A DNA stretch of 64,000 nt from contig JAAXXG010000005.1 of the NCBI GenBank assembly GCA_013334575.1, positions 3,080 through 67,079 of the forward strand. Direction: 5' to 3'. The notes beneath the pieces were generated by a model that saw nothing but the letters and a program-made list of their open reading frames with translations, did no database searches and was not told the origin of the DNA. This document shows positions 3,546 to 60,861 of this stretch, piece by piece (the stretch's first letter is position 1; every line of letters starts with the position of its first letter). Position numbers and translations under genes: made by a program. This DNA is from Candidatus Moraniibacteriota bacterium. Its GTDB lineage: Bacteria > Patescibacteriota > Minisyncoccia > Moranbacterales > UBA1568.

Positions 3546-3611
3546 AAGGGATAGCGATAGGAATCAGGCTTTCAAAAAACGAGGAGATACGTCTTTTTGA
3601 TTCTTTCTTCG

Positions 3612-10815: not shown

Positions 10816-10848
10816 AGTTGCTCTTTATTCTCACTATATCATACGGTG

Positions 10849-11271
10849 TCACCCGTCCGATCGTTCGGACAGATATGCGAACACGAACCATACGGCACCC
10901 ACGGTAAGCCAGACATCGGCGAGATTGAAAGCCGGAAACCAGGAGACGACCGAGAAATCCCGGACACATCCCCACAGGATACGATCGACGAGATTTCCGA
11001 TTCCTCCGGCAAGAATGAATATGAGAGGCAGCCTTCCGTACCGCATATCTCCCCGAAACGATACGACCGCAAGACCTCCGAGCACGATCGCCGAGACGGC
11101 CGCGTACGTCGACGAGTCACCGGAAACGCCCAACGGCCCGAACGGATTGCACGACGAACCCGGGTGCCCCATGAAGACCGCCTTTATGGACAGATCCGAA
11201 AACAAAAGGGCCGCGAACGCCATCGCGTCACGACCCTTTTCCGTCGATGGGACATGGTACCTCACCTTCAT
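10849..11271 (-). CDS. lspA: lipoprotein signal peptidase II
   Basis: GNLVDR...FNLAD motifs. Start taken at MKVRYH. Confidence 0.8.
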   Translation of the reverse strand: MKVRYHVPSTEKGRDAMAFAALLFSDLSIKAVFMGHPGSSCNPFGPLGVSGDSSTYAAVSAIVLGGLAVVSFRGDMRYGRLPLIFILAGGIGNLVDRILWGCVRDFSVVSWFPAFNLADVWLTVGAVWFVFAYLSERSDG

Positions 11272-27579: not shown

Positions 27580-28599
27580 TCAACGCACTCCGACCGGAGC
27601 GACCCCTCCTTGCTTCGTGGTACTTATCTGCGTCGTAAGCTGCTGGTTAAGTTCGGATGAATAGGCTGCTCCGCGTCCAAGCGTCTGGTTCGCAAGATCG
27701 ATCCTGGAACCGATCTGGGCGTCGACACTCGCTACCTCACGAAGCAGCTTCGACTGGATACTGCCAAGACCGTTCTGAATGACATTCGTTATCATCCGGT
27801 TCGCAAGCGTTGCTATCGCGCCGCTTATCAGTTCGCTCGGATTCTGCGCCTCCGCTATGATCTTGTTTCCGATATCCTGGACGTTCGAAACGATCTGACC
27901 GATCGTACTTCCCGGAAGAATGGTGTTTCCGTTGGCATCCTTGACCCCTTTATATCCGGACGCCATCGCCTGAACCTGGGCTGCCTGGGTATTCTTCGCA
28001 TTTTCTTCCATCACGAAACGCTCCGCTCTCAGCGAATATCCGATCGGATCGCTTCCGGTCGAAAACATTTCCGACAAGACGCGAAAATCCCCACTTCCTA
28101 TGGATGTGATCGGATCACCGCTCAATTCGCTCAGCCTCGCCGTCGAACCGACCGTCCCCGATCCGCCGGAAAGGTGAAGATCGGCGATCTTCGAGAGCTT
28201 CGACTCGTACGAGCCGCTCGATCCGGCCGCATTGAATCCGCTCGCCCTCCCCTGCAGGGTCAATGGTTTAAACGTGCTTTCGTAAGCCAGCTTCGTCTTC
28301 TGCTGCGACTCACCATAAAGATACTGCCTCCAATCGGTAATGATCAGTGATTGCTTCGTCGAATTTCCGACGACCATGCTCATCACGCGGGTATTGAGAA
28401 GGCTGATCGTCGTCGATTTCAGCGTTGCAAGCAGGACGCCGTCGATTTGTGCCTGAATCTTCTCCAGAGTCTGCTTCAGAATGGCCGCCGGAATCGCATC
28501 GCCCCATGCGTAAGCCGGCCGGGCCGAGAGTGACAGGACGCAGACCAGCAACAGCGCCACCGCGACGGGACGAGTTTTTTTTGAGGATGTCTGTTTCAT
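27580..28599 (-). CDS. hypothetical secreted protein
   Basis: Signal peptide (…LLLVCVLSLSARPAYA). Composition is Ser/Thr/Gln/Asn rich. Confidence 0.5.
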   Translation of the reverse strand: MKQTSSKKTRPVAVALLLVCVLSLSARPAYAWGDAIPAAILKQTLEKIQAQIDGVLLATLKSTTISLLNTRVMSMVVGNSTKQSLIITDWRQYLYGESQQKTKLAYESTFKPLTLQGRASGFNAAGSSGSYESKLSKIADLHLSGGSGTVGSTARLSELSGDPITSIGSGDFRVLSEMFSTGSDPIGYSLRAERFVMEENAKNTQAAQVQAMASGYKGVKDANGNTILPGSTIGQIVSNVQDIGNKIIAEAQNPSELISGAIATLANRMITNVIQNGLGSIQSKLLREVASVDAQIGSRIDLANQTLGRGAAYSSELNQQLTTQISTTKQGGVAPVGVR

Positions 28600-28621
28600 A
28601 CGCCGATGCTTGAGCGTGATA

Positions 28622-29629
28622 TTACTGAAGCTCGAGCGGGATAGACGTTATCCCGTAGTCGGAAAGCTTCGACTGCACGTCGGTCACGAACACACCGACC
28701 ACTCCGAGCAGCCCTTGAACCTTTGAAAGCGTCTTGATCGTCATTACCGGATCATCCTGTATCGAATCACCGACGTCGTCCTTCAGTTTCGCCATGTACG
28801 TCGCAAGCTTGAGCGCCTTAACGTGCGTGTCGAGCATCTGCTGAGGAACTTCGACTTCGTTGATCTGCTCGAGCATACGCTGCCCGCTCTCCACATAGGT
28901 ATCCAACGAAGAGACATTCCCCATCGAGACGGCGGTGATCGCCTCGTTCGCAAACGACTCCGATACGCTCTGCAATTCGCTCTGGTTCGTGATCTGAACC
29001 GGAGAGTTGCTCGCAAAGATGAAGGAGACGGTCGTAAGATACTCCGTTATATCCTCCTTGATGCGCTCTTTTCGCTTCGATTCCGAGAGCCCGGCATAGG
29101 TCTCATCCTTGACTTTGATAGCGCTCAAATCGACATCCGGGAGCGAGACTTCTTCGGCTCCGCCGGATATTTCCTGCGCGATGGATGTCAGATCCTCTAT
29201 CGACACCTCGGTGGTACCGTCAGATGTCACGTTTGACTCCGACGCCTTCACCAAGGCAGCCAATTTTTCGCTTACCGTGTCCGTCAAATTGTCACCACCC
29301 ATTCCGCCCGACGAAGTCTCATCCCTTTTTTCAGCCTTTGTTTCCTGTACGATTTTATCGCCAGGCGCAGCTTTCAACGGATCGTACCCTCCCCGGATCT
29401 CCACGCCGTCAGAATATCCGTCACTATCGGTATCCCGATTCGCCGGATCCGTTCCATATAGCCGCTCTTCCGCGCCAGTTAGGCCGTCCTGATCGGAATC
29501 ATCCACGATATTCGCGGCACGCATCTCCTCCGCCGATGTCACGAAAATGCCGTACCCGATAGCGACAAGACACGCTAACAGAAGAAAATCGGCACGAAGA
29601 CCACCCACCAGGTTCTTCATTCGATTCAT
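28622..29629 (-). CDS. secreted protein with thrombospondin type-3-like Asp-rich Ca-binding repeats
   Basis: N-terminal TM/signal, then DDSDQDGLTGAEERLYGTDPANRDTDSDGYSDGVE (DxDxDG repeats). Confidence 0.5.
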   Translation of the reverse strand: MNRMKNLVGGLRADFLLLACLVAIGYGIFVTSAEEMRAANIVDDSDQDGLTGAEERLYGTDPANRDTDSDGYSDGVEIRGGYDPLKAAPGDKIVQETKAEKRDETSSGGMGGDNLTDTVSEKLAALVKASESNVTSDGTTEVSIEDLTSIAQEISGGAEEVSLPDVDLSAIKVKDETYAGLSESKRKERIKEDITEYLTTVSFIFASNSPVQITNQSELQSVSESFANEAITAVSMGNVSSLDTYVESGQRMLEQINEVEVPQQMLDTHVKALKLATYMAKLKDDVGDSIQDDPVMTIKTLSKVQGLLGVVGVFVTDVQSKLSDYGITSIPLELQ

Positions 29630-32896: not shown

Positions 32897-35689
32897 ATGG
32901 CTCTCTGCCACAGCCTCCGCTGCGAACATTCCGTGACGCCGCTTGGCGTCGACGAACCGAATCCGCTTCTCGAATGGCACATCGAAAGCGAACAAGCCGG
33001 CTTTCTTCAGACGGCCTATCGGATTCAGGCAGCCCTTTCGAAGGAAGTCCTCGAACAGGAGCGTGACCTCACATGGGATACGGGAGAGGTCGAATCGTGG
33101 CACACGTTCGATATCCCGTACGAGGGTCTTCCCATCGCAAGCGCGCAACGTTATTTCTGGCGGGTCGCATCCCGGAATCAGGACGGCATATGGACGCCAT
33201 GGAGTAAGACTAGCTGGTGGGAAACCGGCCTTCTCAGGACCGAGGACTGGCACGCAAAGTTCATCGAACCTGGAAAGGAGGACGGCGTCGGCGCCGAGCG
33301 TCCGGCACCATATTTCCGCGCCGTGTTCGATATCGACCAGCCGATCAAGTCCGCAAGGGCATATGTGTCCTGTCACGGCATATATGAACTTTCCCTCAAC
33401 GGAGCACCCGTCGGAGACGCGGTATTCGCTCCGGGGTATACGAATTACCCCGATAGACTCCAATACCAGACCTACGATGTGACGGAATTTGTCCGCTCCG
33501 GAGGCAATGCCGTCGGCATGATTGTCGGCGACGGATGGTACAGAGGACGACTCGGTATCACCTCGCAGCGGGATACGTATGGCACCGTTCTGGGCGCGCT
33601 ACTACACCTCGACATCCTTCATACTGACGGGACTCATACGGTCGTGGCAACCGGGGAGGACTGGAAGTACGCGTTCGGCCCCATCAGAAATTCCGATTTG
33701 AAGGACGGCGAGACCTACGATGCCAGACTGGAATTCGACGGGTGGGATATTTTCGGATTCGATGATTCCGACTGGAAACCGGCTCAAGTCGCCGAACACA
33801 GGCTCGGCACGCTCGTGGCCTCGTCCGCCCCTCCGGTCAGGCGGAAGGAGCGCTTTCGACCGATCAACATCACGAAGTGTTCCCACGACACGTTTCTCCT
33901 CGATTTCGGTCAGAATATCGCCGGACGCGTCCGATTCCGGATTACAGGACCCCGTGGAACACGCGTCCGGATCCGACACGGAGAGACGCTCGACCAGAAC
34001 GGGCGACTCTCGCTCAAACATCTGCAGCCGACCGCGCCAGGCCTCCCGAAACTCCGCCAGGAAGACCTTTACATACTGAAAGGGGATGATTCGGAGGAAT
34101 ATGAGCCGCGATTCACATACCATGGATTCCGCTACGCGGAAGTCTCTGGATGGCCGTCGGACATTCTCGTTGCCGATTCATTCGAAGCGATCGCGATACG
34201 TACCGACTTTGAACGAACGGGCTATTTCCGCTGTTCGGATCCGGACCTGAACCGCCTGTATCGAAACATCCTCTGGAGCATGCGGGGAAATTCCGTCGAT
34301 ATCCCGACGGACTGCCCGACCCGTGAACGATCAGGATGGACCGCGGACGCGCATTTGTTCGCTGCGACTGCCACCTACGCTTACGATACCAGGACTTTCT
34401 ACGAAAAGTGGCTCTCTGACCTTTACTCGGACCAGCATCCGGACGGCCTCGTTCCGGATACGATTCCGGATCCGGGAGGCGCCCGCGCGAACGCCGTTTC
34501 CAGAATAACGGACGGATCATCAGGCTGGGGAGATGCGGCCGTCATCATACCATGGATACTCTATTCGCAAACCGGAGACCACCGAATCCTGGAGCGACAA
34601 TACCGCAGCATGAAGAACTGGGTCGACTACGGGAAAAAAAGGTTGTCGAGAACGGGATGGTCTCACCGGATGAACCCCGTCGAGCGCCTGAACGCATCCC
34701 GAATGCATCGGGAGCCGTATATCCTGGACAGCGGCTATCATTGGGGAGAATGGCTCCGTCCTGGCGAACGAAAGTCAGTCCCTCTCACGATGGGAAAGAA
34801 CATCCTGCTCGATGACCGCAGCGAAAGCGTAGCTGCGACCGCCTATCTGGCACATTCGGCCGACCTCCTCTCGCGCATCGCGAACATACTAGATGTTCCC
34901 GACGACGCCAGACGCTATTCGGAACTGTTCGATCACATTCGAAAGGCGTATTCCGAAGAGTTCATAAGAGATGGCCGCATGAACCCGGACGATCAGTCCG
35001 TGTACGTCAGGACGCTCGCCTTCTCCCTGGCACCCGACGCACTCCGGCCGATGCTTGCGAAGCGGCTCAATGAACTCGTCGAACACGGCGGCTACCATCC
35101 GGATACGGGCTTCCTTTCAACCGCATACCTTCTCGAGGCGCTCAACGATGCCGGATTCGCGGATACCGCCTACCGGCTCCTGAAGACGGACACGTACCCC
35201 TCCTGGCTCCATCAGATCAGAAACGGCGCAACGACCATCTGGGAAAGCTGGGATGGGATAGACAGCAAAGGGCAGGCGCATTTTTCGCACAATCACACGG
35301 CGCTGGGATCCATCGGACGATGGTTTTTCGAATCCATCGCGGGAATAAAGGTCGACGCCACGAAAGATGATCCCACCGTCTTCCGCATCGCTCCCGCTCT
35401 TGGCGGCGGATTGACATATGCCGCCGCGACGTATCATTCGCCATTCGGGATCGTCCGAACACGCTGGGACCTCATGGAAGACCGTTCGGCACGACTCCTT
35501 GTTTCCATCCCGCCAAATACGAGAGCGGAAATCAGCTTTCCAACACAAGATCGAGACACCATAACCGAATCCGGTTTTCCTGTACACGGCCGAAAGGACA
35601 TCCTCCCTATCCGTCGAGAAGAAACGCGATCCGACTACCTTGTCGTAAGCGGCACATATGTCTTCGAGTGGCCGCATGAAAGGAAGTAA
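32897..35689 (+). CDS. alpha-L-rhamnosidase (GH78)
   Basis: 930 aa. The N-terminus matches the rhamnosidase N-domain (..LLEWHIES..QTAYRIQAA..), followed by a six-hairpin catalytic domain and C-terminal domain. Confidence 0.8.
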   Translation: MALCHSLRCEHSVTPLGVDEPNPLLEWHIESEQAGFLQTAYRIQAALSKEVLEQERDLTWDTGEVESWHTFDIPYEGLPIASAQRYFWRVASRNQDGIWTPWSKTSWWETGLLRTEDWHAKFIEPGKEDGVGAERPAPYFRAVFDIDQPIKSARAYVSCHGIYELSLNGAPVGDAVFAPGYTNYPDRLQYQTYDVTEFVRSGGNAVGMIVGDGWYRGRLGITSQRDTYGTVLGALLHLDILHTDGTHTVVATGEDWKYAFGPIRNSDLKDGETYDARLEFDGWDIFGFDDSDWKPAQVAEHRLGTLVASSAPPVRRKERFRPINITKCSHDTFLLDFGQNIAGRVRFRITGPRGTRVRIRHGETLDQNGRLSLKHLQPTAPGLPKLRQEDLYILKGDDSEEYEPRFTYHGFRYAEVSGWPSDILVADSFEAIAIRTDFERTGYFRCSDPDLNRLYRNILWSMRGNSVDIPTDCPTRERSGWTADAHLFAATATYAYDTRTFYEKWLSDLYSDQHPDGLVPDTIPDPGGARANAVSRITDGSSGWGDAAVIIPWILYSQTGDHRILERQYRSMKNWVDYGKKRLSRTGWSHRMNPVERLNASRMHREPYILDSGYHWGEWLRPGERKSVPLTMGKNILLDDRSESVAATAYLAHSADLLSRIANILDVPDDARRYSELFDHIRKAYSEEFIRDGRMNPDDQSVYVRTLAFSLAPDALRPMLAKRLNELVEHGGYHPDTGFLSTAYLLEALNDAGFADTAYRLLKTDTYPSWLHQIRNGATTIWESWDGIDSKGQAHFSHNHTALGSIGRWFFESIAGIKVDATKDDPTVFRIAPALGGGLTYAAATYHSPFGIVRTRWDLMEDRSARLLVSIPPNTRAEISFPTQDRDTITESGFPVHGRKDILPIRREETRSDYLVVSGTYVFEWPHERK

Positions 35690-35750: not shown

Positions 35751-36320
35751 TCAGTCGAGGACGACCTGCGCGACAAGGTGCCGTCGGCCGAACGCAAAGG
35801 CCTCTTTCTTGGTCTCCATGTAGATATCGAAGCGGTTTCCCTTTATCGCGCCGCCGCGATCCTCGCACCGGAAGACCCCGAGCCCGTCGATATCGATCTT
35901 GGCACCGAAAGGAAACTGCGGGGGACATGCGAGCGTACGGTTCTCCGCGACACGGAGACCGGAAGCGGTGACGCCGTCGGACTTTCCGCACTCATCGGCG
36001 GATGCGGTATATGCCGACGCATTTATCTCGAACGCCCCTTCGGGAAGCGCCTCCCAACGGTCAAGCTGCTTCTGCTTCCATCGTGCGAGGATGCGCTCCT
36101 CGGGCGAGGGAGTCGCGCGCTCTTCGGATACGGTCGACCGATCCGCCTCCGGAAGACCGAAGGCCGTCTTCAGCGAAAAGATGTCGTCGATACTCATCCG
36201 AGACGAGCTCTGCCCGTTCGACAGAGCATCGGAACGGTCGTCTACGGATTCGGCATTCGCGGCGTTCGCCCATGACAGGATCACTATCGATAGGACGAAC
36301 GCCAGACGTTTACCATGCAT
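35751..36320 (-). CDS. secreted 3D-domain (RlpA/MltA-like DPBB) protein
   Basis: Signal peptide MHGKRLAFVLSIVILSWANAANA. C-terminus ...GVTASGLRVAENRTLACPP..IDIDGLGVFRCEDRGGAIKGNRFDIYM. Confidence 0.7.
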   Translation of the reverse strand: MHGKRLAFVLSIVILSWANAANAESVDDRSDALSNGQSSSRMSIDDIFSLKTAFGLPEADRSTVSEERATPSPEERILARWKQKQLDRWEALPEGAFEINASAYTASADECGKSDGVTASGLRVAENRTLACPPQFPFGAKIDIDGLGVFRCEDRGGAIKGNRFDIYMETKKEAFAFGRRHLVAQVVLD

Positions 36321-36503
36321 ACGATACTGACAGTGCTTATCCAAGCCCTCCGCTTGGGCCATGCTCCCAGGTTTTTCCGAGCATAACTGACAATGCTAGC
36401 ACATATTTGTAATAATGTCAATATTGCGAAGCAGGGGAAAACACGAAAGAATCATGATATGATTTGAAACAAGCCAAAAAGCATCCTAAGGAGGGGATGA
36501 CCT

Positions 36504-43211: not shown

Positions 43212-43220
43212 CCCGCACCG

Positions 43221-43246
43221 AAACCCCGGCCCAGCCGGGGTTTTTT
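43221..43246 (+). terminator. intrinsic terminator after sod
   Basis: AAACCCCGGCCCAGCCGGGGTTTTTT. Confidence 0.7.
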
Positions 43247-43292
43247 GAGGATGCGGAAGATGGTATACTGAAAACGAACATAAAACCGTCGT

Positions 43293-44261
43293 ATGACAAT
43301 CTTCCATAAAACCGTTTCCCGACTCCTCATCGCGTTCCTTGTCGTTTTTATGCTCGCCTCGGTCCGTCCGGCGTTCGCTGCCGACGGATTCACGTACGAG
43401 CCGCTTGAACCGATTCCAGGAGCGGAAGACGCCGCGAAGCTTCCCGACTACATCACCGGTATCTACAAATTCGCCCTGTGGGCCGTCGGTATCGCTGCCA
43501 TGTTCATGATCACGATCGGCGGAGGCATGTATCTTACGAGCGCCGGAAACACTTCCGCGATGGGAAACGCGAAAGGCGTCATTACCGACGCGATCATCGG
43601 GCTCGTACTCGCGCTCTTCGCGTGGTTTCTGCTCAATCTCATCAATCCAAGCATCCTCAGCGGCGACCTTTCCGTCTTCAGCACGGTCGGAGTCGCTTCA
43701 TCCGGCAGTCAGGCAGCAGGCGGAACGACGTCAGGAGCAACGGGCACTTCAGGTCAGGGCGCCGTCAGTACCGTCAATCAAGCCTCGACTCTTTCCGCAG
43801 CCGCGGCCGCAAAGGCGCTTCTTGCGAGCTCCAACGTGACCATCAGTTCTTCCGGCGACTGTAAATCCGCTTCCGGCGCCGTATCACCTTCTTCGAATCT
43901 CACGGAGATGTCCTCCGGAAAGGCGATGACCACCTGTCATGACGGTTGTAAATCCGGCAGCCTCTGCACCGGATCGAGCTATGCGAACGCCACGCTTCTC
44001 AATGCTCTTTTCACCGCTTCAAACTCCGCATCCCTTACGATAAACAGCCTTGCGGGAGGCGATCATTCTGCGGGCTCCGCCCATTATTCCGGGAACGCCG
44101 CCGACATCGATCTTCCGAATGCCGCCCTTACCTCCTATCTCCAGAAGAGCAGCTCGACGACCTGCACCTATAAGGGTGGCGCACAGTATCGCGTGAACGG
44201 CGTCTACTGGTGGTACGAAGACTCGTCGCATATCCACGTACAGATGACCCCTCTCTGCTAA
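43293..44261 (+). CDS. TrbC/VirB2-like membrane protein fused to a C-terminal LAS/M15-type zinc peptidase-like domain
   Basis: Signal peptide plus two TM helices and a Gly/Ser/Thr-rich linker. C-terminus SAHYSGNAAD (H-x6-D) and HIH (HxH) match LAS metallopeptidase zinc ligands. Confidence 0.5.
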   Translation: MTIFHKTVSRLLIAFLVVFMLASVRPAFAADGFTYEPLEPIPGAEDAAKLPDYITGIYKFALWAVGIAAMFMITIGGGMYLTSAGNTSAMGNAKGVITDAIIGLVLALFAWFLLNLINPSILSGDLSVFSTVGVASSGSQAAGGTTSGATGTSGQGAVSTVNQASTLSAAAAAKALLASSNVTISSSGDCKSASGAVSPSSNLTEMSSGKAMTTCHDGCKSGSLCTGSSYANATLLNALFTASNSASLTINSLAGGDHSAGSAHYSGNAADIDLPNAALTSYLQKSSSTTCTYKGGAQYRVNGVYWWYEDSSHIHVQMTPLC

Positions 44262-44283: not shown

Positions 44284-45435
44284 ATGAAAAAGGTCTTTAC
44301 CGTTTCCATCGCGCTGTTTGCAGTCACGCTTTTGTTCGTAGGGGCGTATTACCTTATCTTCCGGAAGACGGGGAATACCGCAATCGTAGACGCGACGAAA
44401 CACGAAGAGTCGAGACAGGAAACGGAACAGGCATTCCTCGAGGGAGCGACCGAATCAGACATCGTTGCCGTGACGGATTTTGCCGTCATAGGTGCCACCG
44501 ACCTGGACGAATCGCATCTCGCCTATTTCCACGGCCGGAATCTGAAGCGATCGACTCTTGGAGGCGGCGCCGAGGAGATCCTCATTGATAATCTTCCCGG
44601 AACGGCAGCCGACGCTTCGTGGTCACCGGACCGAAGCAAGGTTCTCGTCCTCCTTGGTACGGAATCCGGCGATCGCTGGCATCTCGTCACGCTTTCCGAT
44701 CGGAAGGTGACACCGCTCCGAAACGGGATATCCTCTCCGAAATGGTCGAATCTCTCCGAGAGGATCTACTATTCCTACACTGATCCGGGAACCGGAAAAG
44801 CGGAACTCGACTCGGCAAAGCCCGACGGGACCGACTGGAAAAAGATCTCGAGTCTCACGTCTCCGACGAGCTTCCTTCAGACGATACCCTCTTCGGCAAC
44901 CCTTTCGTTCTGGAGCCGACCGTCCGCCTTCGAGGAGACGTCTATGTCCATCGTCCCCGCGACCGGAGGCGAGCCTAGGCGGATATTCTCTGGAAAGTTC
45001 GGTGCGGACTACCTTTGGTCTCCGGACGGCTCGAAGGTTCTTATCAGCAATACCGTGACGAAGGGGGGGGCCGATGTCCGGCTCGGGATAGCGAACCGTG
45101 ACGGTGGCGAGTTTCGCACACTCCTTGTGCCGACCATCGTTTCAAAAGCCGTTTGGTCCAAGGATGGAAAGACTGTTTATTATGCACTTCCTCTTTCCAT
45201 TCCGGAAAATTCCGTCCTTCCGAACGACTATTACAACCGACCCATCCATACGCAGGACTCCTTCTGGAAAATCGATACGTCTACAGGTAAAAGCGAACGC
45301 ATCATAGATCCCGAGGCGATCGGAGGAACATACGACAGCATCGATCCGTTCATGGATCAGAGCCAGAGCTATCTTTTTTTCACGGACCGGACGAGCGGCA
45401 AACTCTTCCGCATAAGACTGAACGCATCCTCCTGA
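44284..45435 (+). CDS. TolB-like periplasmic WD40/PD40 beta-propeller protein
   Basis: N-terminal TM then repeated WSPD(G/R)SKV motifs. Confidence 0.6.
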   Translation: MKKVFTVSIALFAVTLLFVGAYYLIFRKTGNTAIVDATKHEESRQETEQAFLEGATESDIVAVTDFAVIGATDLDESHLAYFHGRNLKRSTLGGGAEEILIDNLPGTAADASWSPDRSKVLVLLGTESGDRWHLVTLSDRKVTPLRNGISSPKWSNLSERIYYSYTDPGTGKAELDSAKPDGTDWKKISSLTSPTSFLQTIPSSATLSFWSRPSAFEETSMSIVPATGGEPRRIFSGKFGADYLWSPDGSKVLISNTVTKGGADVRLGIANRDGGEFRTLLVPTIVSKAVWSKDGKTVYYALPLSIPENSVLPNDYYNRPIHTQDSFWKIDTSTGKSERIIDPEAIGGTYDSIDPFMDQSQSYLFFTDRTSGKLFRIRLNASS

Positions 45436-51664: not shown

Positions 51665-52408
51665 TTATTCACTCGCCTTATCCCCCGCTCCGGAACGGAG
51701 CACGTACCACTGCTGTACGATAGCAAACGCGGTGGAGACGACCCAATACAACGAAAGTGCCGATGGAAACCGGATTCCGATGAACAGAGTCAGAACCGGC
51801 CCCATATAGAGCATCTGCTTGTTCATAATCGTCGCGAAATCCGGCTCCCCGCCATTCTTCGAGGGCTTCTCTTTCCCGTTCTGACCCAGGGAAAGCATCT
51901 TCATCTGATAGAACTGACCTATCGCCGCGAGTACCGCAAACGCGATACTCGGCTTTGCAAGGTCTGCCAATCCGAAGAATGCACCGGAAAGAAGCCCGGG
52001 ATCAGCCACGAAACGGTAGAGAATACCGCCATCGACACGGAATCCGGTCTCCGATATATGCATGATGACGCTGTATATCGTGATCAGGAACACGATCTGG
52101 ATTACGATCGGAAGGCATCCCATCACCGGATTCACTTTGTGTTTCCGATAGAGTTCCATGATTTCACGCGACTGCCGTTCCTTGTCATCCTTGTAACGTT
52201 CCTGGACCTCCTTCATCTTCGGCTGCAGTTCCTGCATCTTCCGCTGCGCCTCGATCTGCTGCTTCGAAAGCGAAAGAAAGACGAGCTTGATAACGAGCGT
52301 CGAAGCGATGATCGCCAGACCGAAATTCGCGACCGGAAACAGTCCGGCAAAAAAGACCAGCAGATTATAGACCGGCTGATACACGAGAGCGGTGAATATC
52401 TCATTCAT
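51665..52408 (-). CDS. yidC: membrane protein insertase YidC (short form)
   Basis: 247 aa with YidC/Oxa1 core helices. Part of the rnpA-yidC-jag operon. Confidence 0.85.
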   Translation of the reverse strand: MNEIFTALVYQPVYNLLVFFAGLFPVANFGLAIIASTLVIKLVFLSLSKQQIEAQRKMQELQPKMKEVQERYKDDKERQSREIMELYRKHKVNPVMGCLPIVIQIVFLITIYSVIMHISETGFRVDGGILYRFVADPGLLSGAFFGLADLAKPSIAFAVLAAIGQFYQMKMLSLGQNGKEKPSKNGGEPDFATIMNKQMLYMGPVLTLFIGIRFPSALSLYWVVSTAFAIVQQWYVLRSGAGDKASE

Positions 52409-52766
52409 ACTGTTTTCGTCCGGAAAAACCGGAATTTATGGCTTTTACAAGCCCTTCAATATCATTCATCGTCGAAACCAGACCCACTCCACCCTCCGGC
52501 TTCCGCTTAAAGGATAGCACTACATACGCATTCGAAGGAAACCCACCAAGAAACGGCTTGATCGATTCGGAGAGGATTCTCCTGGCACGGTTCCGATCGG
52601 TCGCCAGGCGAAAGGTCTTTTTTGCCGAAACACAGGCGATTTTAGTCGTATCATCCACATTGAAAAGGATCCGAGCACTGACGTTTCCGAAGAAAAAGGG
52701 CTTTCCGTAACGAAAAGCCTTCTGCACCGAGAGAGGATTTTTGAGCCGATAAACACGCGGCACCAT
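52401..52766 (-). CDS. rnpA: RNase P protein component
   Basis: 121 aa basic protein (…KKTFRLATDRNRARRILSES…) between rpmH and yidC. Confidence 0.85.
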   Translation of the reverse strand: MVPRVYRLKNPLSVQKAFRYGKPFFFGNVSARILFNVDDTTKIACVSAKKTFRLATDRNRARRILSESIKPFLGGFPSNAYVVLSFKRKPEGGVGLVSTMNDIEGLVKAINSGFSGRKQYE

Positions 52767-53147: not shown

Positions 53148-54578
53148 ATGAACCACCAGGAACTCTGGAAATCCGTCCTCGGGCAGATCGAGCTTTCCAT
53201 TTCGAAGGCTAATTTCGTCACCTGGTTCCAGAACACATCGATCCTCTCTATCGAAGACGGATCCGTCGTTATCAGCGTCCCGAACGGATTCGCCAAGGAA
53301 TGGCTTGAAAATAAATATAATCACACCATCATACAGTCGCTCCGCTCGTTTGAAGGAGACGCGGTACGCTCTATACGCTGCGTCATATCCGGCCCACAGA
53401 CCATAAAGAAATCGATCGACGCCATAACACAGCCCGTACAACAGATCGACATCGCTTCGAAATCCTCCCCGCTTCCACCTCGCATACAACCGTTCAATCC
53501 CACCGCTCCCGTCCCTACACCAAAACTGGCGACGGCGATGTTCCATGAATCGAATCTCAATCCGCGATACACTTTCGACGACTACGTCGTCGCCGAAAAC
53601 AACGAACTCGCCCATGCGGCCTGTGTCGCCGTTTCCAGGAATCTCGGTCAACTTTACAATCCGCTCTTCATCTACGGCGGCGTAGGACTCGGGAAAACCC
53701 ACCTCCTCCAGGCACTCGGAAACGAAGTGAAGCGGCAGCACCCTGAAAAGACGATCAAATACATCACTTCCGAGCGTTTCACGAGCGAACTCGTCGATTC
53801 CATCAAGAACCAGAAGACCGACAAGTTCAAGGAATACTACCAGCAGATGGACCTCCTCATCATCGACGACGTCCAGTTTCTTTCCGGCCGGGAAAAGACT
53901 CAGAACGAATTTTTTCACATCTTCAACGCCCTCTACCAGATCAACAAACAGATCGTGATATCAAGCGATCGCCCCCCGAAATCGATTCCTACCCTCGAAG
54001 ACCGTCTCCGATCCCGATTCGAAGGAGGAATGATCACCGATATTAGCCAGCCGAACGAAGAAACCAGACTCGCTATCCTTAAGAAGAAAGTGATCGAAAA
54101 AGGCGTTTCCATAGACGAGGAATCCCTCAGGTTCATCGCGGAAAACATCACCCAGAACATCCGGGAAATCGAAGGGGCGCTTAATCGCGTCATCGCCTAC
54201 TCGGAATTCTACAAGACACCTCCGTCGATATCACTCGTTGAAAAGGTGCTCTCCCAGCTCATTATTCAGAATAAGAAGACCATTAGCACCGAGGATATCG
54301 TTTCAGCTACCGAGAAGCTCTTTTCGGTCACCAAGGACGATCTCCTGAAAAAAGGACGGAAGAAAGGCATCGCACATGCGAGGCAGGTTGCGATGTACCT
54401 CATGCGAAGCGAACTCAGCATGCCGTTCTCCTCGATTGGCGACTATTTCGGTGGACGAGATCATACGACCGCTCTCCATGCATTCGAAAAGATATCCGCC
54501 GACATCGAAAAGAATCTCCGTCTCAAGGGTGATATTTCGACTCTAAAAAATGAGCTGTACCATCAAAATGGTGGATAA
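53148..54578 (+). CDS. dnaA: chromosomal replication initiator DnaA
   Basis: N-terminus MNHQELWKSVLGQIELSIS..., Walker A GGVGLGKTHLL, and C-terminal DNA-binding domain. Confidence 0.95.
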   Translation: MNHQELWKSVLGQIELSISKANFVTWFQNTSILSIEDGSVVISVPNGFAKEWLENKYNHTIIQSLRSFEGDAVRSIRCVISGPQTIKKSIDAITQPVQQIDIASKSSPLPPRIQPFNPTAPVPTPKLATAMFHESNLNPRYTFDDYVVAENNELAHAACVAVSRNLGQLYNPLFIYGGVGLGKTHLLQALGNEVKRQHPEKTIKYITSERFTSELVDSIKNQKTDKFKEYYQQMDLLIIDDVQFLSGREKTQNEFFHIFNALYQINKQIVISSDRPPKSIPTLEDRLRSRFEGGMITDISQPNEETRLAILKKKVIEKGVSIDEESLRFIAENITQNIREIEGALNRVIAYSEFYKTPPSISLVEKVLSQLIIQNKKTISTEDIVSATEKLFSVTKDDLLKKGRKKGIAHARQVAMYLMRSELSMPFSSIGDYFGGRDHTTALHAFEKISADIEKNLRLKGDISTLKNELYHQNGG

Positions 54579-54843: not shown

Positions 54844-55995
54844 ATGAAAATCATCTGTACTCAAGAAAATCTCTCGAAAGCACTGTCTTACCTTGAACGG
54901 GCTACAGGAAAGCAATCGACTTTGCCTATTCTTTCCAACTTCCTTCTCAGAGTCGATCACGGTCGCCTGAAGCTATCTTCGACGAATCTTGAAATCGGGG
55001 TGACTGCGACGGTAAACGCGAAGATCGAGGGGGTGGGTGAGATCGCGGCGCCGGTGAAGATCATATCCAATTTCGTCGGGAATCTTCCTGGGGATGATGT
55101 CGTATCGATCGATGTGCAAGGGAATTCCGTTTCGGTCGCGTCGGGCGGCTATGATATGCGTGTCCGAGGGCTCGATTCGAAAGATTTCCCTATCATTCCG
55201 GAAAGGAAAGGTGAACATTCCTTTCTGCTGCCCGCTCAGGATCTGAAAACGGCCCTGCAGCGCATTCTCCCGTGTGCCTCATCGAATGAAAGTCGCCTGG
55301 AGTTGACCGGTATCAGTATGCAGTTTCTGAAGGGGGAGGTCCACCTTGCTGCGACGGACAGCTTCAGGCTTGCCGAACAGGTTCTCCGTCTTCCAGATGA
55401 TGTCGGATCGGAGGGGTATGAGGTGTTCCGGGATCAGAATCCGTCTCTTATTCTCCCTCATATCACCATGCAGGAGCTTTCCAGGATCATCTCTCCTGAG
55501 ACTGTTTCCGTGTTCGTGGCATTCGAGGAGAATCAGGTGTTTTTCGATATCGACGGGGTATCGATTGTTTCACGGGTTATTAATGGAAAATATCCCGATT
55601 ATAAGCAGATTCTTCCGAAAGAGTTCTCGTATGTCGCCAGACTTTCCCGGGATGAGTTTCTTCGGGCTGTCAGGATGGCGGGAGTATTTGCGTCTCAGAT
55701 GACCGGAGAGATGATGATCGTGGTCTCTCCGGAGAAGGGTGAAGTGCAGGTTTCCGCCAGGTCGTCCGAGATTGGTGAGAATCGTACGGTTATAAAGGCC
55801 GAGGTGTCCGGAGGGGATCCGGTTCAGATCGTCTTTAATCCCCGTTATGTGATTGATGGCTTGAACGCGGTCTCTTCCGAAGTGGTTGCGTTCCTCCTGA
55901 ATTCCTCGTCGACTCCGGCTGGGTTCAGGTCGGTTGGCTCTGACGGGATTGAAGATCCTTTCTTCCTTTATATCGCGATGCCTATCAGGAAATAG
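54844..55995 (+). CDS. dnaN: DNA polymerase III beta sliding clamp
   Basis: MKIICTQENLSKALSYLERATGK... and three-domain clamp length. Confidence 0.93.
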   Translation: MKIICTQENLSKALSYLERATGKQSTLPILSNFLLRVDHGRLKLSSTNLEIGVTATVNAKIEGVGEIAAPVKIISNFVGNLPGDDVVSIDVQGNSVSVASGGYDMRVRGLDSKDFPIIPERKGEHSFLLPAQDLKTALQRILPCASSNESRLELTGISMQFLKGEVHLAATDSFRLAEQVLRLPDDVGSEGYEVFRDQNPSLILPHITMQELSRIISPETVSVFVAFEENQVFFDIDGVSIVSRVINGKYPDYKQILPKEFSYVARLSRDEFLRAVRMAGVFASQMTGEMMIVVSPEKGEVQVSARSSEIGENRTVIKAEVSGGDPVQIVFNPRYVIDGLNAVSSEVVAFLLNSSSTPAGFRSVGSDGIEDPFFLYIAMPIRK

Positions 55996-56387: not shown

Positions 56388-58952
56388 TCACCAGCTTACC
56401 GAGACGCTTGACTCACGTCCGTCCTCATTCCCGTTATCATCCTTCACGATCGCTTCTATGTGGATCGTAGAATGATTCTTCCCATCCGGGACCTGATAGG
56501 TCGTCTCCAGCGAATCATTGCTTGTCGAGGCGATCTCGTTCCCGTCGGCAAGGATCCGGAGTGAACTGATGCCGTACGGTGCCTCCGTCTTTGCCTTAAC
56601 GGTAAACGATTGTCCTGCGGAATCCGGAGTGGAAAGGCTTACTTTCGCCTTATAGTCGGAGAAATCACTCTCCTTACACTCGTCTTCCGGCGCTCCTCCG
56701 GTAACTCCACCCTTCACTTTGTTCTTCTTGTACCATTCCTTGACACCGTCTTCCCATCGTTTGAACTGAGGATCGTTTTCCGGATGCTCAGGCTTCGTTC
56801 CAAGCGGGTCGTTTCGGTCGATGTAGTAGAGGATAGTGTGCGTGTTGACGAAATCCTTCTTGTCAGCCTTGCTGTCGGGGCAGTACTTGTTCGCAAGACA
56901 GTATTTGTCCTTTCCGGGAATCTTACAGACCTTCACGTTCTCTTCCTGATCAAGTTTTCCGTCAAGAAGGGGCTTCTTCATCCATTCCGCATCCTTGTTT
57001 TCCTCGAAATAGGAATCCTTGGAATATTCGGGAAACTTTTCTATTGCCTGATTCTTGAGCGCGAAATCGATGAATTTCCGGAAGATCGGCGCCGCGACAT
57101 TGACACCGTCCGCGCCGGTTCTCATGGGAGAATTGTCGTTGTTTCCGGCCCAGACGCCGACGGCTATCTGCGGAGTGAATCCGACCGTCCAGCCGTCACG
57201 GAACTCGTTCGTCGTCCCGGTCTTCGCCGCGACGGGTCTATCGTCGAACCGGAGGGGACTGTTTGTCCCGAAAACCGGAGCCCGATAGTCGTTCGTGGAC
57301 ATGACATGGTCGAGCATGGCGACGTATTTCTCGTCGACAACCCGTTCTCCCGTGGTATCCTGATACTGTTCCAGGACGTTTCCTTTCGTATCTTCGATCC
57401 GGAGAATCGCCGTCTTATCGCGTCGTACGCCGCCTTGGGCAAGCGTCGAGTAGGCGTTCACGTGGTCAAGTAGGGTAATTTCTCCGCCTCCGAGGACAAG
57501 GGAGAGTCCGTATCGGTCCGGATCGTTGAGACTGGTGATCCCGAGGCTCTTCGCGAACGCGACCGCATCCTTCGCGCCGACAAGATACAGGGTCTTAACC
57601 GCTGGTATGTTGAGGGACTGGGCGAGCGTTTCCTTCATGGGGAGCGGTCCTCGGAATTTTCCGTCGTAGTTTTGCGGGGTATAGTCCTTCCCGTCATCGG
57701 TCGAAAAGTTCGTCTCGGTGTCGTAGAGGATCGTTTCGGGGCTGTAGCCCTTGGTGAAGGCGTCGAGATAGACGTACGGTTTGAAGGACGATCCCGGCTG
57801 ACGTTCCCTGATCGCCACGTTTACTTGGCCGTCAATCGACTTATCGAAATAGTCGCGCGAGCCGACCATGGTAAGAATCTGCCCCGTCTTCGGGTCCATG
57901 GCGACGAGCGCCGCGTTCTCGGCGTTCCAGCGCTTCTCGTTATCGAGTGCCTGGTCGCGTACGAGTCGTTCGGCTTCCTGTTGTTTGTCCCAGTCGAGCG
58001 TGGTATAGACCTTGAGACCCATGGATTCCACTCCTTCGCCGTATTTCTGCGAGAGATAGTCCTTTACGTACATCACGAAGTGCGGTGCCGCGATGATATC
58101 CTTCTGTGTCTGTATCCGGTCGAGAGTCTTTTCCGCGACGGCCGAGTCGGCCTCTTCCTGGGAGATATAGCCGAGCTTCGCCATTTGCTGGAGCACCCTG
58201 TCCTTCCGGGCAATCAGTTGTTCGGTATGCGATCCATACGGCGAATAATAAGTCGGCGCGTTCGGGAGCGACGCGAGTACGGCCGCTTCGTCGAGCGAGA
58301 GATCCTTGGCGGACTTTCCGAAGAATGTCTGCGCCGCAGCCTCGATGCCGTAGGCGTTCGATCCGTACGGGATCTCGTTGAGGTACATCGCGAGGATCTC
58401 GTCCTTGTCGAATTTCTGCTCGATCTCGATCGAGAGGATGACCTCCTTCACTTTTCGGATGACCGTCTTTTCGTTCGAGAGAAGGGAATTCTTCACGAAC
58501 TGCTGCGTGATGGTCGATCCGCCTTGTGCCGCGCCACCTTTCACGACATCCTTGAAGACGGCCCGGAGGATAGAGGAGAGCTTGATGCCGTGGTGCGAGT
58601 AGAAATCCTGGTCCTCGAGGACGATTGTCGCGATCTGGACGCTTTTCGGGATATCGGCAAACGCGACGATAGTCCTTTTTTCCTCGCCGTGAACGTCATA
58701 GAGCAGGTGTTCGCCGGATCGGTCGTAAATCTTCGTGGATTCCGGTATGACGCGAGAGTTGACCTTCCCGGGGCTCGGCAAATCCTTCGCGACCCATGCG
58801 AAGAGCGCGATCGCGATGATGAACACCGTTCCGGCGCCCCAAAGGGCTATACGCCCGAGGATTTTCGGCCATTCGCGCCTGTCAGCTTCGGACAATCTGC
58901 GCCACCTGCCGTCCGATGGCCGGAATCGGTCAAAAAGTCTTTTCATAAGCAA
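56388..58952 (-). CDS. class A penicillin-binding protein (PBP1A-type transglycosylase/transpeptidase) with C-terminal extension
   Basis: N-terminal TM, GT51 motifs (EDQDFYSHHG, GGSTITQQ), and TP motifs (SSFKP, SLN, KTGT). Confidence 0.9.
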   Translation of the reverse strand: MLMKRLFDRFRPSDGRWRRLSEADRREWPKILGRIALWGAGTVFIIAIALFAWVAKDLPSPGKVNSRVIPESTKIYDRSGEHLLYDVHGEEKRTIVAFADIPKSVQIATIVLEDQDFYSHHGIKLSSILRAVFKDVVKGGAAQGGSTITQQFVKNSLLSNEKTVIRKVKEVILSIEIEQKFDKDEILAMYLNEIPYGSNAYGIEAAAQTFFGKSAKDLSLDEAAVLASLPNAPTYYSPYGSHTEQLIARKDRVLQQMAKLGYISQEEADSAVAEKTLDRIQTQKDIIAAPHFVMYVKDYLSQKYGEGVESMGLKVYTTLDWDKQQEAERLVRDQALDNEKRWNAENAALVAMDPKTGQILTMVGSRDYFDKSIDGQVNVAIRERQPGSSFKPYVYLDAFTKGYSPETILYDTETNFSTDDGKDYTPQNYDGKFRGPLPMKETLAQSLNIPAVKTLYLVGAKDAVAFAKSLGITSLNDPDRYGLSLVLGGGEITLLDHVNAYSTLAQGGVRRDKTAILRIEDTKGNVLEQYQDTTGERVVDEKYVAMLDHVMSTNDYRAPVFGTNSPLRFDDRPVAAKTGTTNEFRDGWTVGFTPQIAVGVWAGNNDNSPMRTGADGVNVAAPIFRKFIDFALKNQAIEKFPEYSKDSYFEENKDAEWMKKPLLDGKLDQEENVKVCKIPGKDKYCLANKYCPDSKADKKDFVNTHTILYYIDRNDPLGTKPEHPENDPQFKRWEDGVKEWYKKNKVKGGVTGGAPEDECKESDFSDYKAKVSLSTPDSAGQSFTVKAKTEAPYGISSLRILADGNEIASTSNDSLETTYQVPDGKNHSTIHIEAIVKDDNGNEDGRESSVSVSW

Positions 58953-59007: not shown

Positions 59008-59952
59008 TCAAATACCTGTCGAAGCCTTTCTTCCAAGGGATTTCAGTGTCCGACGTATGAATTCCTCGTAATCCATATCTTCTGATGGGAATCCTATCTG
59101 ATCGTTCAACTCGAAGACGAACGGTGTTTTTCCGCCCGCAACTCCGAAATCTATCGAATAGAGAGGGAGGTCGAACTCAGTATCTATACTTTCCTGTATT
59201 TCTGAAACCCGATCAAGAATGAAGGCCGGGATTTCTTTTAGCGGGACTTCCCGAATCGATCCTCCCTGGGCGACATTCGCAAGAAAGGAGCCTTCTTTCG
59301 GGGTCCGAACATGACAAAGGACGATTTGTCCCTCAACGATGATAATCCTAAGGTCATGTCGGCCATCGATGACACCAGGAATCCCTTTGGAGGTGTCGAC
59401 GAATTCCTGTAAGGAATACTCTTTTTCCGGTTCGAGTGTCGAAAGGGCTATTTCCGAAGCCGGTCCGATGAGGATCCCGTTTCCCTGCATGCCTTTCGAG
59501 GGTTTCAGGACAACGATATCCCCAGCATCGAATTCGTCGAGTGCGGATCGAAGCTCCTCTTTGCTCCGGATAGTGATGTTTTTCGGCATGAAATCGGAAA
59601 GATGTCCGTACATGGCGTTTTTGTCGTTGCAAAGACGCTTGAAAACGATGCTATTCAAGGTTTTTTTACCGATTTTCTCGGGAGGGAAGGAAAGTCCGCC
59701 GCTTCGGTCGAATATTGCATCGGCGTCAATCGACCCATAATCCAAGAAGGTGCCGGAGTCATACCGATACGCGTTCCTGAATGTCAGCGGGGATTCGTAA
59801 TTTTCCTTTCCGCTCGCAACGAACATATCGAAACCGAGTTCCGTTCCGAGTTCGAAAAGGCGATGATAAACCATCTTCTTTTTCCCGAACGTCGCGAACG
59901 GATCTCCGCCTATCGTCCGCCGGTGAAAATACATCACTATCTTTTTTCGCAT
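59008..59952 (-). CDS. ATP-grasp domain protein
   Basis: Central VVLKPSKGMQGNGI...EGQIVLCHVR...NVAQGG...FELNDQIGF is ATP-grasp architecture. Confidence 0.6.
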   Translation of the reverse strand: MRKKIVMYFHRRTIGGDPFATFGKKKMVYHRLFELGTELGFDMFVASGKENYESPLTFRNAYRYDSGTFLDYGSIDADAIFDRSGGLSFPPEKIGKKTLNSIVFKRLCNDKNAMYGHLSDFMPKNITIRSKEELRSALDEFDAGDIVVLKPSKGMQGNGILIGPASEIALSTLEPEKEYSLQEFVDTSKGIPGVIDGRHDLRIIIVEGQIVLCHVRTPKEGSFLANVAQGGSIREVPLKEIPAFILDRVSEIQESIDTEFDLPLYSIDFGVAGGKTPFVFELNDQIGFPSEDMDYEEFIRRTLKSLGRKASTGI

Positions 59953-60848
59953 GAAACAAGGTATTTTGCGAGCTCTGAAATTTCGGGGGACACTGTCTCG
60001 TCGGTGGTGAAAGCGGGGCAGCTGTTAACTTCGAATATGAATGGTCCGCGTTCCGGATGATCCACTATATCGACTCCGGCAATCTCGATATCCGTAATTT
60101 CCGCGCCGAGGACGGCGGCCATCCTCACCTCCTCCCGGACCTTGGACGGGTCGATGAATTCCTCATCCGCTCCAAGGTGGACGTTGTTCCGGAATTCCTC
60201 TTTCCCGGAACGGGTTTTCTTTTCCGCTACGGAAACATGATTTCCCATGACGAGAAGGCGATATTCGAATGTATTCGGTATGAATTCCTGCAGGAAAATC
60301 TCCCTTCCACCGTTGTTTTCAAGCCGGTCGCATATGATTTTTGAGAGTTCTTCCCCTGTTTTCGCTAGAAATACACCGGATCCCTGCGAGGAATTCGTCT
60401 CTTTCACGACGATTGGAAAGCCGAGGAACGCGATGGCGTTTTCCCTTTGCTGTCCGGAATATCCCGCCGAATGATATGTTTTCGGAACGGGTGCTCCGCT
60501 CAGGGCGAGATTGAAGATCTGGATGATTTTCGCCATATCCGAAGCGTCCTTGGTCCGATTATGGAATCCGTCCAGGAATCTGACCCCTTTCCGTTCCGAG
60601 AGGCGACAGAGCATGTGCGCCAACCCTCTGTACTTCCCGACTTTTCTCGGGTATATAGTCGTCCATTCGTCGACGGGCTTTTCTTCAACTCGTATCTCGA
60701 CACTCCCTTTTTCTATGAAGACCTCGAGATCCTCGAAACTGGAGACGGAATAAGGGGTGCCGTCTTCGGAGAGCTTTTCACCGAGTGCGTCGAGAAATCC
60801 TGTCATTTTCGGTCCCGTCTCTCTTTTGCTTTTCAATATGAGCAACAT
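59937..60848 (-). CDS. RimK-like ATP-grasp ligase
   Basis: FPIVVKETNSSQGSGVFLA...LLVMGNHVSVAEKKTRSGKEEFRNNVHLGA...AGVDIVDHPERGPFIFEVNS. Confidence 0.7.
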   Translation of the reverse strand: MLLILKSKRETGPKMTGFLDALGEKLSEDGTPYSVSSFEDLEVFIEKGSVEIRVEEKPVDEWTTIYPRKVGKYRGLAHMLCRLSERKGVRFLDGFHNRTKDASDMAKIIQIFNLALSGAPVPKTYHSAGYSGQQRENAIAFLGFPIVVKETNSSQGSGVFLAKTGEELSKIICDRLENNGGREIFLQEFIPNTFEYRLLVMGNHVSVAEKKTRSGKEEFRNNVHLGADEEFIDPSKVREEVRMAAVLGAEITDIEIAGVDIVDHPERGPFIFEVNSCPAFTTDETVSPEISELAKYLVSCEKR

Positions 60849-60861
60849 AGGTTCTTGATCG

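Follow-up and report, generated by a model that had tools for sequence, protein, structure and literature searches.

Why should a protein built like a pilin of a type IV secretion system (T4SS) end in a domain resembling enzymes that cut peptidoglycan, and whose wall would it open? The question is raised by an open reading frame (ORF) of an ultra-small Candidatus Moraniibacteriota bacterium, located at positions 43293-44261 on the forward strand of a 64,000-nucleotide (64-kb) stretch of contig JAAXXG010000005.1, which was analysed as a whole and is called here the window. Starting with an ATG, it encodes 322 amino acids plus a stop, arranged as a pilin-like module, a linker and a putative LAS peptidase domain. 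The protein is found at full identity in NCBI as 'hypothetical protein HGB18_03270' of Candidatus Moranbacteria bacterium, and the names that databases give to it are 'hypothetical' or 'pilin'. A first-pass annotation, derived from the DNA letters, had read it as a VirB2/TrbC-like pilin fused to a LAS (M15-type) zinc peptidase. We consider it fairly probable that the gene encodes a T4SS- or membrane-tethered peptidoglycan hydrolase with an exchangeable catalytic cassette. Patescibacteria, or candidate phyla radiation (CPR), account for much of bacterial diversity, the function of their T4SSs and their crossing of the wall are little understood (PMC10633639, PMC12102498, PMC12857230), and the fusion family offers a testable piece of this problem.

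The elements named at the outset for the first half of the protein, i.e. a signal peptide, two transmembrane (TM) helices and a Gly/Ser/Thr-rich linker, are all found in the 322-residue ORF. The Sec signal peptide (43293-43379, +, residues 1-29) reads as K6 and R10 in the n-region, then a hydrophobic core, and then AFA followed by AD at residues 27-31, between which cleavage is predicted from the AxA rule; the first Kyte-Doolittle segment spans residues 1-31 and the AlphaFold model places a helix at 3-22. The VirB2-like pilin module comes next (43380-43664, +, residues 30-124) and consists of two long hydrophobic helices (54-82 and 92-123 by Kyte-Doolittle, 47-82 and 87-117 in the AlphaFold model) that form a hairpin, joined by a loop, YLTSAGN...AK, that is invariant in the homologue alignment. 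The protein hence displays the signal peptide, two hydrophobic helices and short loop that mark the pilin family. The Pfam profile T4SS_pilin (PF18895) is matched with 33.5 bits against a gathering cut-off of 26.6, residues 53-117 being aligned to positions 8-71 of a 71-position profile, and 15 of 15 aligned homologues match it as well, which bears out the pilin-like assignment. An ordinary signal-anchor, the alternative named in the first-pass annotation, would not behave in this way, for the module is conserved far beyond the needs of an anchor: over residues 25-133 it is 88% identical to that of the homologue P0007, though the C-terminal half of P0007 is unrelated, and the inter-helix loop does not vary. 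Such tight conservation argues that the pilin module would do more than anchor.

Between the two domains lies a disordered tether (43665-43796, +, residues 125-168), in which Ser, Gly, Thr and Ala account for 31 of the 44 residues and pLDDT, the AlphaFold confidence measure, stays below 50 for residues 129-164. This linker is also the breakpoint of the domain swaps described below.

The C-terminal domain (43797-44258, +, residues 169-322), designated type A, is predicted to be extracytoplasmic and, from AlphaFold2 (AF2) and profile comparisons, LAS-type, or Hedgehog/DD-peptidase-like; with about 150 residues it is larger than the ~110 first proposed. It opens with a Cys-rich sub-region containing C190, C215, C219 and C225. 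Both motifs that had drawn attention to it are present, SAHYSGNAAD at residues 262-271 and HIH at 313-315, providing the LAS zinc signature H-x(3-6)-D ... H-x-H as H264-x6-D271 and H313-x-H315. An H-x6-D followed by an H-x-H occurs in 0.6% of shuffled C-terminal sequences, and the motif pair alone proves little; its real weight comes from conservation in relatives, counted here on 150 representatives with mutual identity of at most 50%. In the zinc-site loop H258-SAGSA-H264-YSGNAA-D271 (44064-44105, +), H258, H264 and D271 are kept in 150 of 150 relatives, S262 in 146, and Y265 and G267 in 148 each. In the second zinc-ligand motif, E309-DSS-H313-I-H315 (44217-44237, +), H313 is kept in 149 and H315 in 147, and Cys215 and Cys219 of the Cys-rich sub-region are near-invariant in the same set.

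The arrangement is that of Sonic hedgehog (Shh), where the roles of the zinc-site and catalytic residues have been described (PMC6027127). The loop aligns to GHHSEESLHYEGRAVDI of Shh with identical spacing of H135, H141 and D148, the second motif is spaced as Shh E177/H181/H183, and the complete pattern H-x5-H-x6-D ... H-x-H equals H135/H141/D148 ... H181/H183. In the subclade of the window protein, E309 precedes H313 by four residues, as E177 does in Shh, and from this spacing it is a candidate general base equivalent to E177; most relatives instead carry Glu or Asp at the column of residue 292. By analogy, H264, D271 and H315 would bind zinc, with H258, H313 and E309 assisting in catalysis.

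Concerning the family to which this domain belongs, sequence profiles converge on one clan. Taken as a single sequence, the window protein scores against Peptidase_M15_3 with E 0.26 and 11.9-14 bits, where the cut-off is 23.2, and Pfam gives no match to SLT or CHAP. When 40 relatives were scanned singly, sub-threshold matches were obtained to M15_3 in 14, M15_4 in 10, HH_signal in 5 and VanY in 1, with best E values of 3.6e-4, 6.3e-3 and 1.3e-3 for the first three; other Pfam families appeared only as singletons or doubletons, all recurrent ones belonging to the M15/HH_signal clan. A single-sequence search of PDB returned nothing relevant, its sole match being a spurious one of a viral envelope protein to the TM region. 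With a 40-sequence profile, the top 24 matches among PDB sequences were all Hedgehog N-domains (best E 4.3e-5), and hhalign against the Shh N-domain (ShhN) gave a probability of 93.3% and E 2.7e-7 over 46 columns that run through strand, zinc loop, strand and helix, with about 26% identity. The AF2 model of the C-domain alone is confident (pLDDT 93.9, predicted TM-score 0.89), and its elements follow the ShhN order, i.e. helix, strand, zinc loop, strand ending at D271, helix, strands, and the strand with HxH. Foldseek against BFVD retrieved as its top match a viral protein annotated 'Sonic hedgehog' (probability 0.96, E 0.019); an entry named 'Peptidase M15A' ranked ninth. The LAS/M15 assignment of the first-pass annotation thus holds as to the zinc signature and the Hedgehog/M15 profile matches, while the nearest types are Hedgehog-N and M15A rather than the VanY and phage endolysins that it had named. 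As the domain falls below all Pfam cut-offs, we file it at superfamily level, as a putative member of the LAS/Hedgehog-DD-peptidase superfamily outside every existing Pfam family. An exhaustive profile search (E<=1e-3) collected 859 representatives at 50% identity, in which the domain is almost always C-terminal, and the same fusion was found in other genomes, the pilin module being present in 144 of the 168 C-domain proteins in hand.

The second line of evidence is that the C-terminal domain is exchanged. The comparison comprised 88 related loci plus the window, 89 altogether, mostly from Moranbacteria species representatives and analysed by tblastn and ORF extraction. Sorted by motif, 29 loci have the LAS type A of the window, 9-12 have type B, 18-20 have type C and 12 have type D, a range giving the counts under two versions of the motif rules. 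Remote homology to type A is seen for types B and C (hhalign 94-95%, ~20% identity) and is marginal for type D. Other positional orthologues carry, above the Pfam cut-offs, SLT (47.9 and 22.2 bits), SLT_3 (30.6) or NlpC/P60 (27.5) domains. Similarity between the window protein and P0007 ends at residue 133, beyond which the C-domains are unalignable; the five closest N-domain relatives of the window protein (78-91%) are all type B; and N-domain nearest neighbours share the same C-type in 29 of 76 cases. Cassette swaps are recurrent. Divergence of the C-domain in place was considered and rejected, as N-domains at 88-91% identity are followed by C-domains that cannot be aligned or show remote homology only, some with different folds. 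The position behind the linker can be called a 'peptidoglycan hydrolase' slot, and this gives independent support to a wall-cutting role of the type A domain.

The fusion gene is single-copy and conserved in position throughout the 89 loci, in a fixed dnaA-proximal slot, and no paralogous pilin or C-domain was found elsewhere in the window. Upstream of it two mutually exclusive layouts are seen. In 59 of the 89 loci, the window included, it follows genes for AhpC and superoxide dismutase (SOD), sometimes with ribonucleotide reductase, and is detached from T4SS genes. In 17-21 loci (about 20 species) a T4SS operon, p580-p406-PrgI-TraC-like-VirB4-p168-p220-p919, runs directly into the pilin gene, which in L005 overlaps the preceding T4SS gene by 11 nucleotides (nt). 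Among T4SS-adjacent loci, 16 of 22 lie outside LAS types A-D; the sampled ones carry SLT or SLT_3 by Pfam and most others SLT-like motifs. The operon position in about 20 species, together with the canonical VirB1 domain (SLT) found there, ties the module to the T4SS. VirB1 homologues have been reported to associate with VirB4 mainly in Paceibacteria (PMC12102498), with which the pilin-SLT fusions in loci of relatives would be consistent.

Downstream, the layout is nearly uniform, with a gene for a beta-propeller protein directly following in 86 of the 89 loci, the three exceptions being contig ends. This partner follows whatever the hydrolase type, and whether or not a T4SS is adjacent. In T4SS-adjacent loci a second pilin-like ORF of 150-220 residues, shorter and more divergent, is found between the pilin-SLT fusion and the propeller gene (L038 10913-11572, L044 10931-11551, L050 10871-11326, L059 10949-11566, L060 10866-11348, L062 10886-11350, L065 10898-11389 and L075 10877-11359), and may be the major pilin.

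In the window, the partner gene (44284-45435, +) starts 22 nt downstream of the fusion stop and encodes 383 residues, with a TM helix at the N-terminus followed by a beta-propeller of PD40 type (24.9 bits against PF07676 PD40, cut-off 20.9); the protein is 42% identical to the corresponding neighbour in L002, shows weak matches to propeller domains of S9 peptidases, and may act as a regulator, as a binder of the wall or of a host, or as a scaffold. Upstream, an intrinsic terminator after the SOD gene (43220-43246, +) consists of a GC stem, CCCCGG/CCGGGG, followed by U6; its RNA fold has -21 kcal/mol and z -3.85, with 0 of 200 shuffles as stable, and a simple consensus scan does not list it. 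Because it lies between them, the fusion gene is expected to be transcribed separately from AhpC-SOD. About 24 nt before the ATG, an extended -10-like element, TGGTATACT (43261-43269, +), picked out by eye from its resemblance to the consensus and absent from the scan, is a putative promoter of the fusion gene and its partner. Given the terminator upstream, the -10-like element and the 22-nt gap, the pair looks like one unit and is probably co-transcribed. The first Wzy-like gene (-) runs towards the partner gene (+), and the 3' ends of the two overlap by 67 nt (45369-45435).

Along the window, the gene order is L19, pseudouridine synthase, AhpC, SOD, the fusion gene, the propeller protein, two Wzy-like proteins and glycosyltransferases, followed by a flippase, YidC, RnpA, dnaA and dnaN. 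The last of these form a replication-origin region (rnpA and yidC at 51665-52766, dnaA at 53148-54578, dnaN at 54844-55995), where cumulative GC skew has its minimum at ~54 kb. The fusion gene lies about 9 kb from dnaA, in agreement with the published note that T4SS genes of Patescibacteria are often found near dnaA. A class A penicillin-binding protein is encoded at 56388-58952, which indicates that the organism makes peptidoglycan.

In the mechanism that we propose, the signal peptide would be cleaved and the VirB2-like hairpin would sit in the membrane with both ends outside, so that the flexible tether of about 44 residues would hold a disulfide-stabilised zinc metallopeptidase outside the cell; such a topology fits the conserved cysteines and the tether. 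The substrate of the zinc domain would be a peptide bond in peptidoglycan. The pilin module would most likely dock the enzyme where the T4SS or pilus is assembled, and the docked enzyme would open a local wall gap for the secretion apparatus, the wall being the cell's own or that of a host at the contact site, the two options raised in the first-pass annotation. Considered across Moranbacteria, this would be a lineage-wide module made of a pilin-like part, an interchangeable peptidoglycan hydrolase and a TM-anchored beta-propeller partner, which in some species closes the VirB4 T4SS operon at its 3' end and in others, among them the window organism, is detached from it.

A number of observations weigh against this proposal. 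The direct neighbours of the gene in the window are oxidative-stress and envelope-polysaccharide genes, no homologue of VirB4, TraC-like, PrgI or p919 was found in the 64 kb (E<=1e-5), and the large ORFs of the window contain no T4SS Pfam domain. At least two T4SS clusters have a LysM-CHAP hydrolase of their own (L069, 795-1964, upstream within the T4SS cluster; L089, from Moranbacteria UBA1302, 3143-4381). On the side of the enzyme, no Pfam M15 model reached its cut-off in the window protein or the 40 relatives scanned. Foldseek of the full-length model against PDB gave weak helical matches only, that of the C-domain model gave none at E<0.2, its 50 best matches including no LAS protein, and the best BFVD match has a low TM-score (0.34-0.36). 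In addition, E309 is limited to the close subclade of the window protein. It should be noted that a detached locus does not imply a genome without T4SS, because UBA1302 has an AhpC-SOD-type locus and, about 40 kb away on the same contig, a complete T4SS cluster. The structural check that had been suggested at first came out divided, with the element order of ShhN in the AF2 model on one side and a weak Foldseek result, nothing being significant in PDB, on the other; we do not take the latter as a refutation, as the profile evidence and motif conservation are strong. Simple replacement of a missing VirB1 was also considered and is rejected, since the L069 and L089 clusters have the same LysM-CHAP gene. 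L069 also encodes a 242-residue pilin-module protein with a Gly/Ala-rich tail and no recognisable hydrolase domain, which, beside these LysM-CHAP genes, hints at alternative ways of supplying a hydrolase.

The same data can be read in three other ways. The N-terminal module might polymerise as a minor, tip or major subunit, so that a filament would display the hydrolase and attack a host wall, with the swaps tracking host peptidoglycan; we regard this as rather unlikely, though not negligible. The N-domain is a bona fide T4SS_pilin member whose conservation goes well beyond the need of an anchor, the quick and repeated replacement of C-domains in close relatives is the pattern expected of a host-facing part, and the second, shorter pilin-like gene of T4SS-adjacent loci could provide the major subunit. 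In F- and T-pilus structures, VirB2-type pilins have both termini on the outside of the filament, which makes a C-terminal fusion geometrically possible. Polymerisation is a supposition drawn from sequence, a 150-residue domain on every subunit would crowd a filament, no second pilin gene is found near the window gene or in other AhpC-SOD-type loci, and nothing ties C-domain type to any host. Patescibacteria T4SSs are for their part regarded as potentially piliated in reviews (PMC12857230). A bolder form of this idea, in which the Moranbacteria T4SS filament would bear tethered and interchangeable 'warheads' (LAS subtypes, lytic transglycosylase, NlpC/P60) matched to host peptidoglycan by recombination at the linker, is speculative and we give it little credence; if true, it would describe a pilus-borne drill by which an epibiotic CPR cell breaches the wall of its host.

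The detachment from T4SS genes in 59 of 89 loci points in a different direction, that of a membrane-anchored endopeptidase or carboxypeptidase that would serve growth, division or envelope-polymer export as a housekeeping autolysin, its pilin hairpin being an inherited anchor. The core chromosomal setting by Wzy-like, glycosyltransferase, flippase, YidC and dnaA genes, the own transcription unit bounded by a terminator, and a single copy conserved in position as for a core gene agree with this. We nevertheless hold it unlikely: a plain anchor is not expected to stay 88-91% identical, with an invariant loop, when the enzyme half is replaced, a conserved wall chemistry of the cell itself is not expected to allow switches between peptidase, glycosidase and NlpC/P60 in close relatives, and in about 20 species the T4SS operon runs directly into the gene. 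Highly improbable, finally, appears a Hedgehog-like pseudo-enzyme that would act as an adhesin for peptidoglycan or a host surface glycan. By sequence the C-domain is closest to Hedgehog N-domains, for which peptidase activity is disputed (PMC6027127), the candidate general-base Glu has no fixed position across the family, and the fold searches retrieved no active M15 enzyme significantly. Yet the three zinc ligands and two auxiliary histidines are essentially invariant in the 150 sequences, whereas known pseudo-enzymes such as Drosophila Hh have lost zinc-site residues (PMC6027127); an acidic residue occurs at 309 or at column 292 in most members, and the same slot is filled by SLT and NlpC/P60 catalytic domains in relatives.

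Some further features of the related loci deserve mention. In L063 the pilin-module ORF (9728-10285) ends after 183-186 residues and is adjoined by a 296-residue ORF with a weak pilin match (10296-11183), which may represent a fusion gene that has been split or frameshifted, or else a fault of the assembly. Long Cys-rich extensions ahead of the pilin module, between the signal peptide and the first helix, occur in fusion proteins of 456-502 residues (L045, L053, L086, L055 and L042) and at the N-termini of P0019, e.g. 'CSTPNTCETPKNGDCPGG...', and P0037. The third-party-annotation (TPA) records of metagenome-assembled genomes underlying L013, L014, L024, L027, L028 and about 20 more loci are titled 'uncultured Bdellovibrionales bacterium'; their Moranbacteria synteny (AhpC-SOD, pilin-X, partner, Wzy, dnaA) indicates that they are taxonomically mislabelled.

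The window also contains other genes worth recording. A complete GH78 alpha-L-rhamnosidase of 930 residues with all five Pfam domains (32897-35689, +) is unexpected in a reduced CPR genome, and a related gene is present in L008. Three consecutive ATP-grasp genes (59008-62256, -), RimK-like, GSH-S_ATP-like and an ATPgrasp_ST fused to a Zn_protease-like domain, may form a peptide-ligase or modification cluster. Further candidates for cell-surface or wall-active proteins are encoded at 27580-29629 (-) and 35751-36362 (-): a pair of neighbouring secreted proteins, of which one has bacterial TSP3 repeats and the other no Pfam match, and a 3D-domain (MltA/RlpA-like) protein.

VirB2-like pilins in Patescibacteria, pilin arrays, proximity to dnaA and scarcity of VirB1 have already been published (PMC12102498). 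The T4SS of these bacteria carries VirB2-like pilins and is essential in one cultured, genetically tractable relative (PMC12102498, PMC10633639). Pilin-hydrolase fusions are not described in PMC12102498, T4SS_pilin, PF01464, Peptidase_M15 and SLT are not present in the supplementary files of the Patescibacteria T4SS paper, and our literature search found neither such a fusion nor this LAS subfamily, in keeping with the initial remark that the fusion was undescribed. Both parts are thus known; what is new is that they are coupled, that the cassette is exchanged, that the propeller partner is obligatory and that there is a Hedgehog-like peptidase family without annotation. A pilin-type module and a peptidoglycan hydrolase are here physically joined in one protein, which some species encode at the end of the T4SS operon. 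The finding bears on the published lack of a recognisable VirB1 in most Patescibacteria genomes with VirB2 (PMC12102498, PMC10633639). The LAS peptidase family defined here comprises at least 859 clusters at 50% identity, with animal Hedgehog domains as its nearest sequence relatives, and the swaps are a natural experiment in which cassette type can be compared with the chemistry of the own or the host wall to learn whose wall is cut.

Compared with known systems, the first half of the protein resembles VirB2/TrbC-type pilins (PF18895), which are abundant in Patescibacteria (PMC12102498), in its signal peptide, two-helix hydrophobic hairpin and Pfam score above the cut-off, in having positional orthologues at the 3' end of the VirB4 operon, and in the tandem pilin-like genes of some loci. 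Described VirB2/TrbC pilins, however, have about 70-200 residues and no enzymatic domain, whereas the window protein adds a tether and a peptidase of about 150 residues; its gene is single-copy and does not adjoin T4SS genes, and filament formation is a supposition. With VirB1-type hydrolases, which are SLT lytic transglycosylases and among which TraG of pIP501 and PrgK of pCF10 are two-domain SLT+CHAP enzymes (PMC12102498), it shares the tie of a wall hydrolase to the T4SS operon in relatives, orthologues with SLT or SLT_3 and a modular chemistry. It differs from them in its LAS metallopeptidase domain in place of SLT or CHAP, and in being anchored by a VirB2-like hairpin where VirB1-type enzymes have a single TM helix or a signal peptide; some T4SS clusters, moreover, also hold a separate LysM-CHAP enzyme.

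The second half was compared with the LAS superfamily, i.e. MEROPS M15 (Streptomyces albus zinc DD-carboxypeptidase, VanX/VanY and phage L-Ala-D-Glu peptidases), M74 MepA and the Hedgehog N-domain. It has in common with them the H-x6-D and H-x-H zinc motif, an upstream His spaced as H135 of Shh, the ShhN order of helix, strand, zinc loop, strand, helix, strand and strand(HxH), and profile matches confined to this clan; it is set apart by scores below every Pfam cut-off, an extra Cys-rich N-terminal sub-domain of about 60 residues and a weak overall three-dimensional similarity in Foldseek. A precedent in architecture is bacHh, the bacterial Hedgehog-like subgroup of M15A (Roelink 2018, PMC6027127), which likewise combines N-terminal TM segments with a C-terminal Hedgehog/DD-peptidase-type domain outside the cytoplasm. 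Membership in bacHh is rejected: bacHh proteins share more than 50% identity with ShhN and retain its calcium-binding acidic residues (PMC6027127), whereas at ~26% identity the window domain has INSLAGGDH in place of the acidic calcium-site cluster TEGWDEDGHH of Shh. Its similarity is limited to a core of about 46-60 residues, its N-terminal part is a pilin module, and its host lineage is the CPR.

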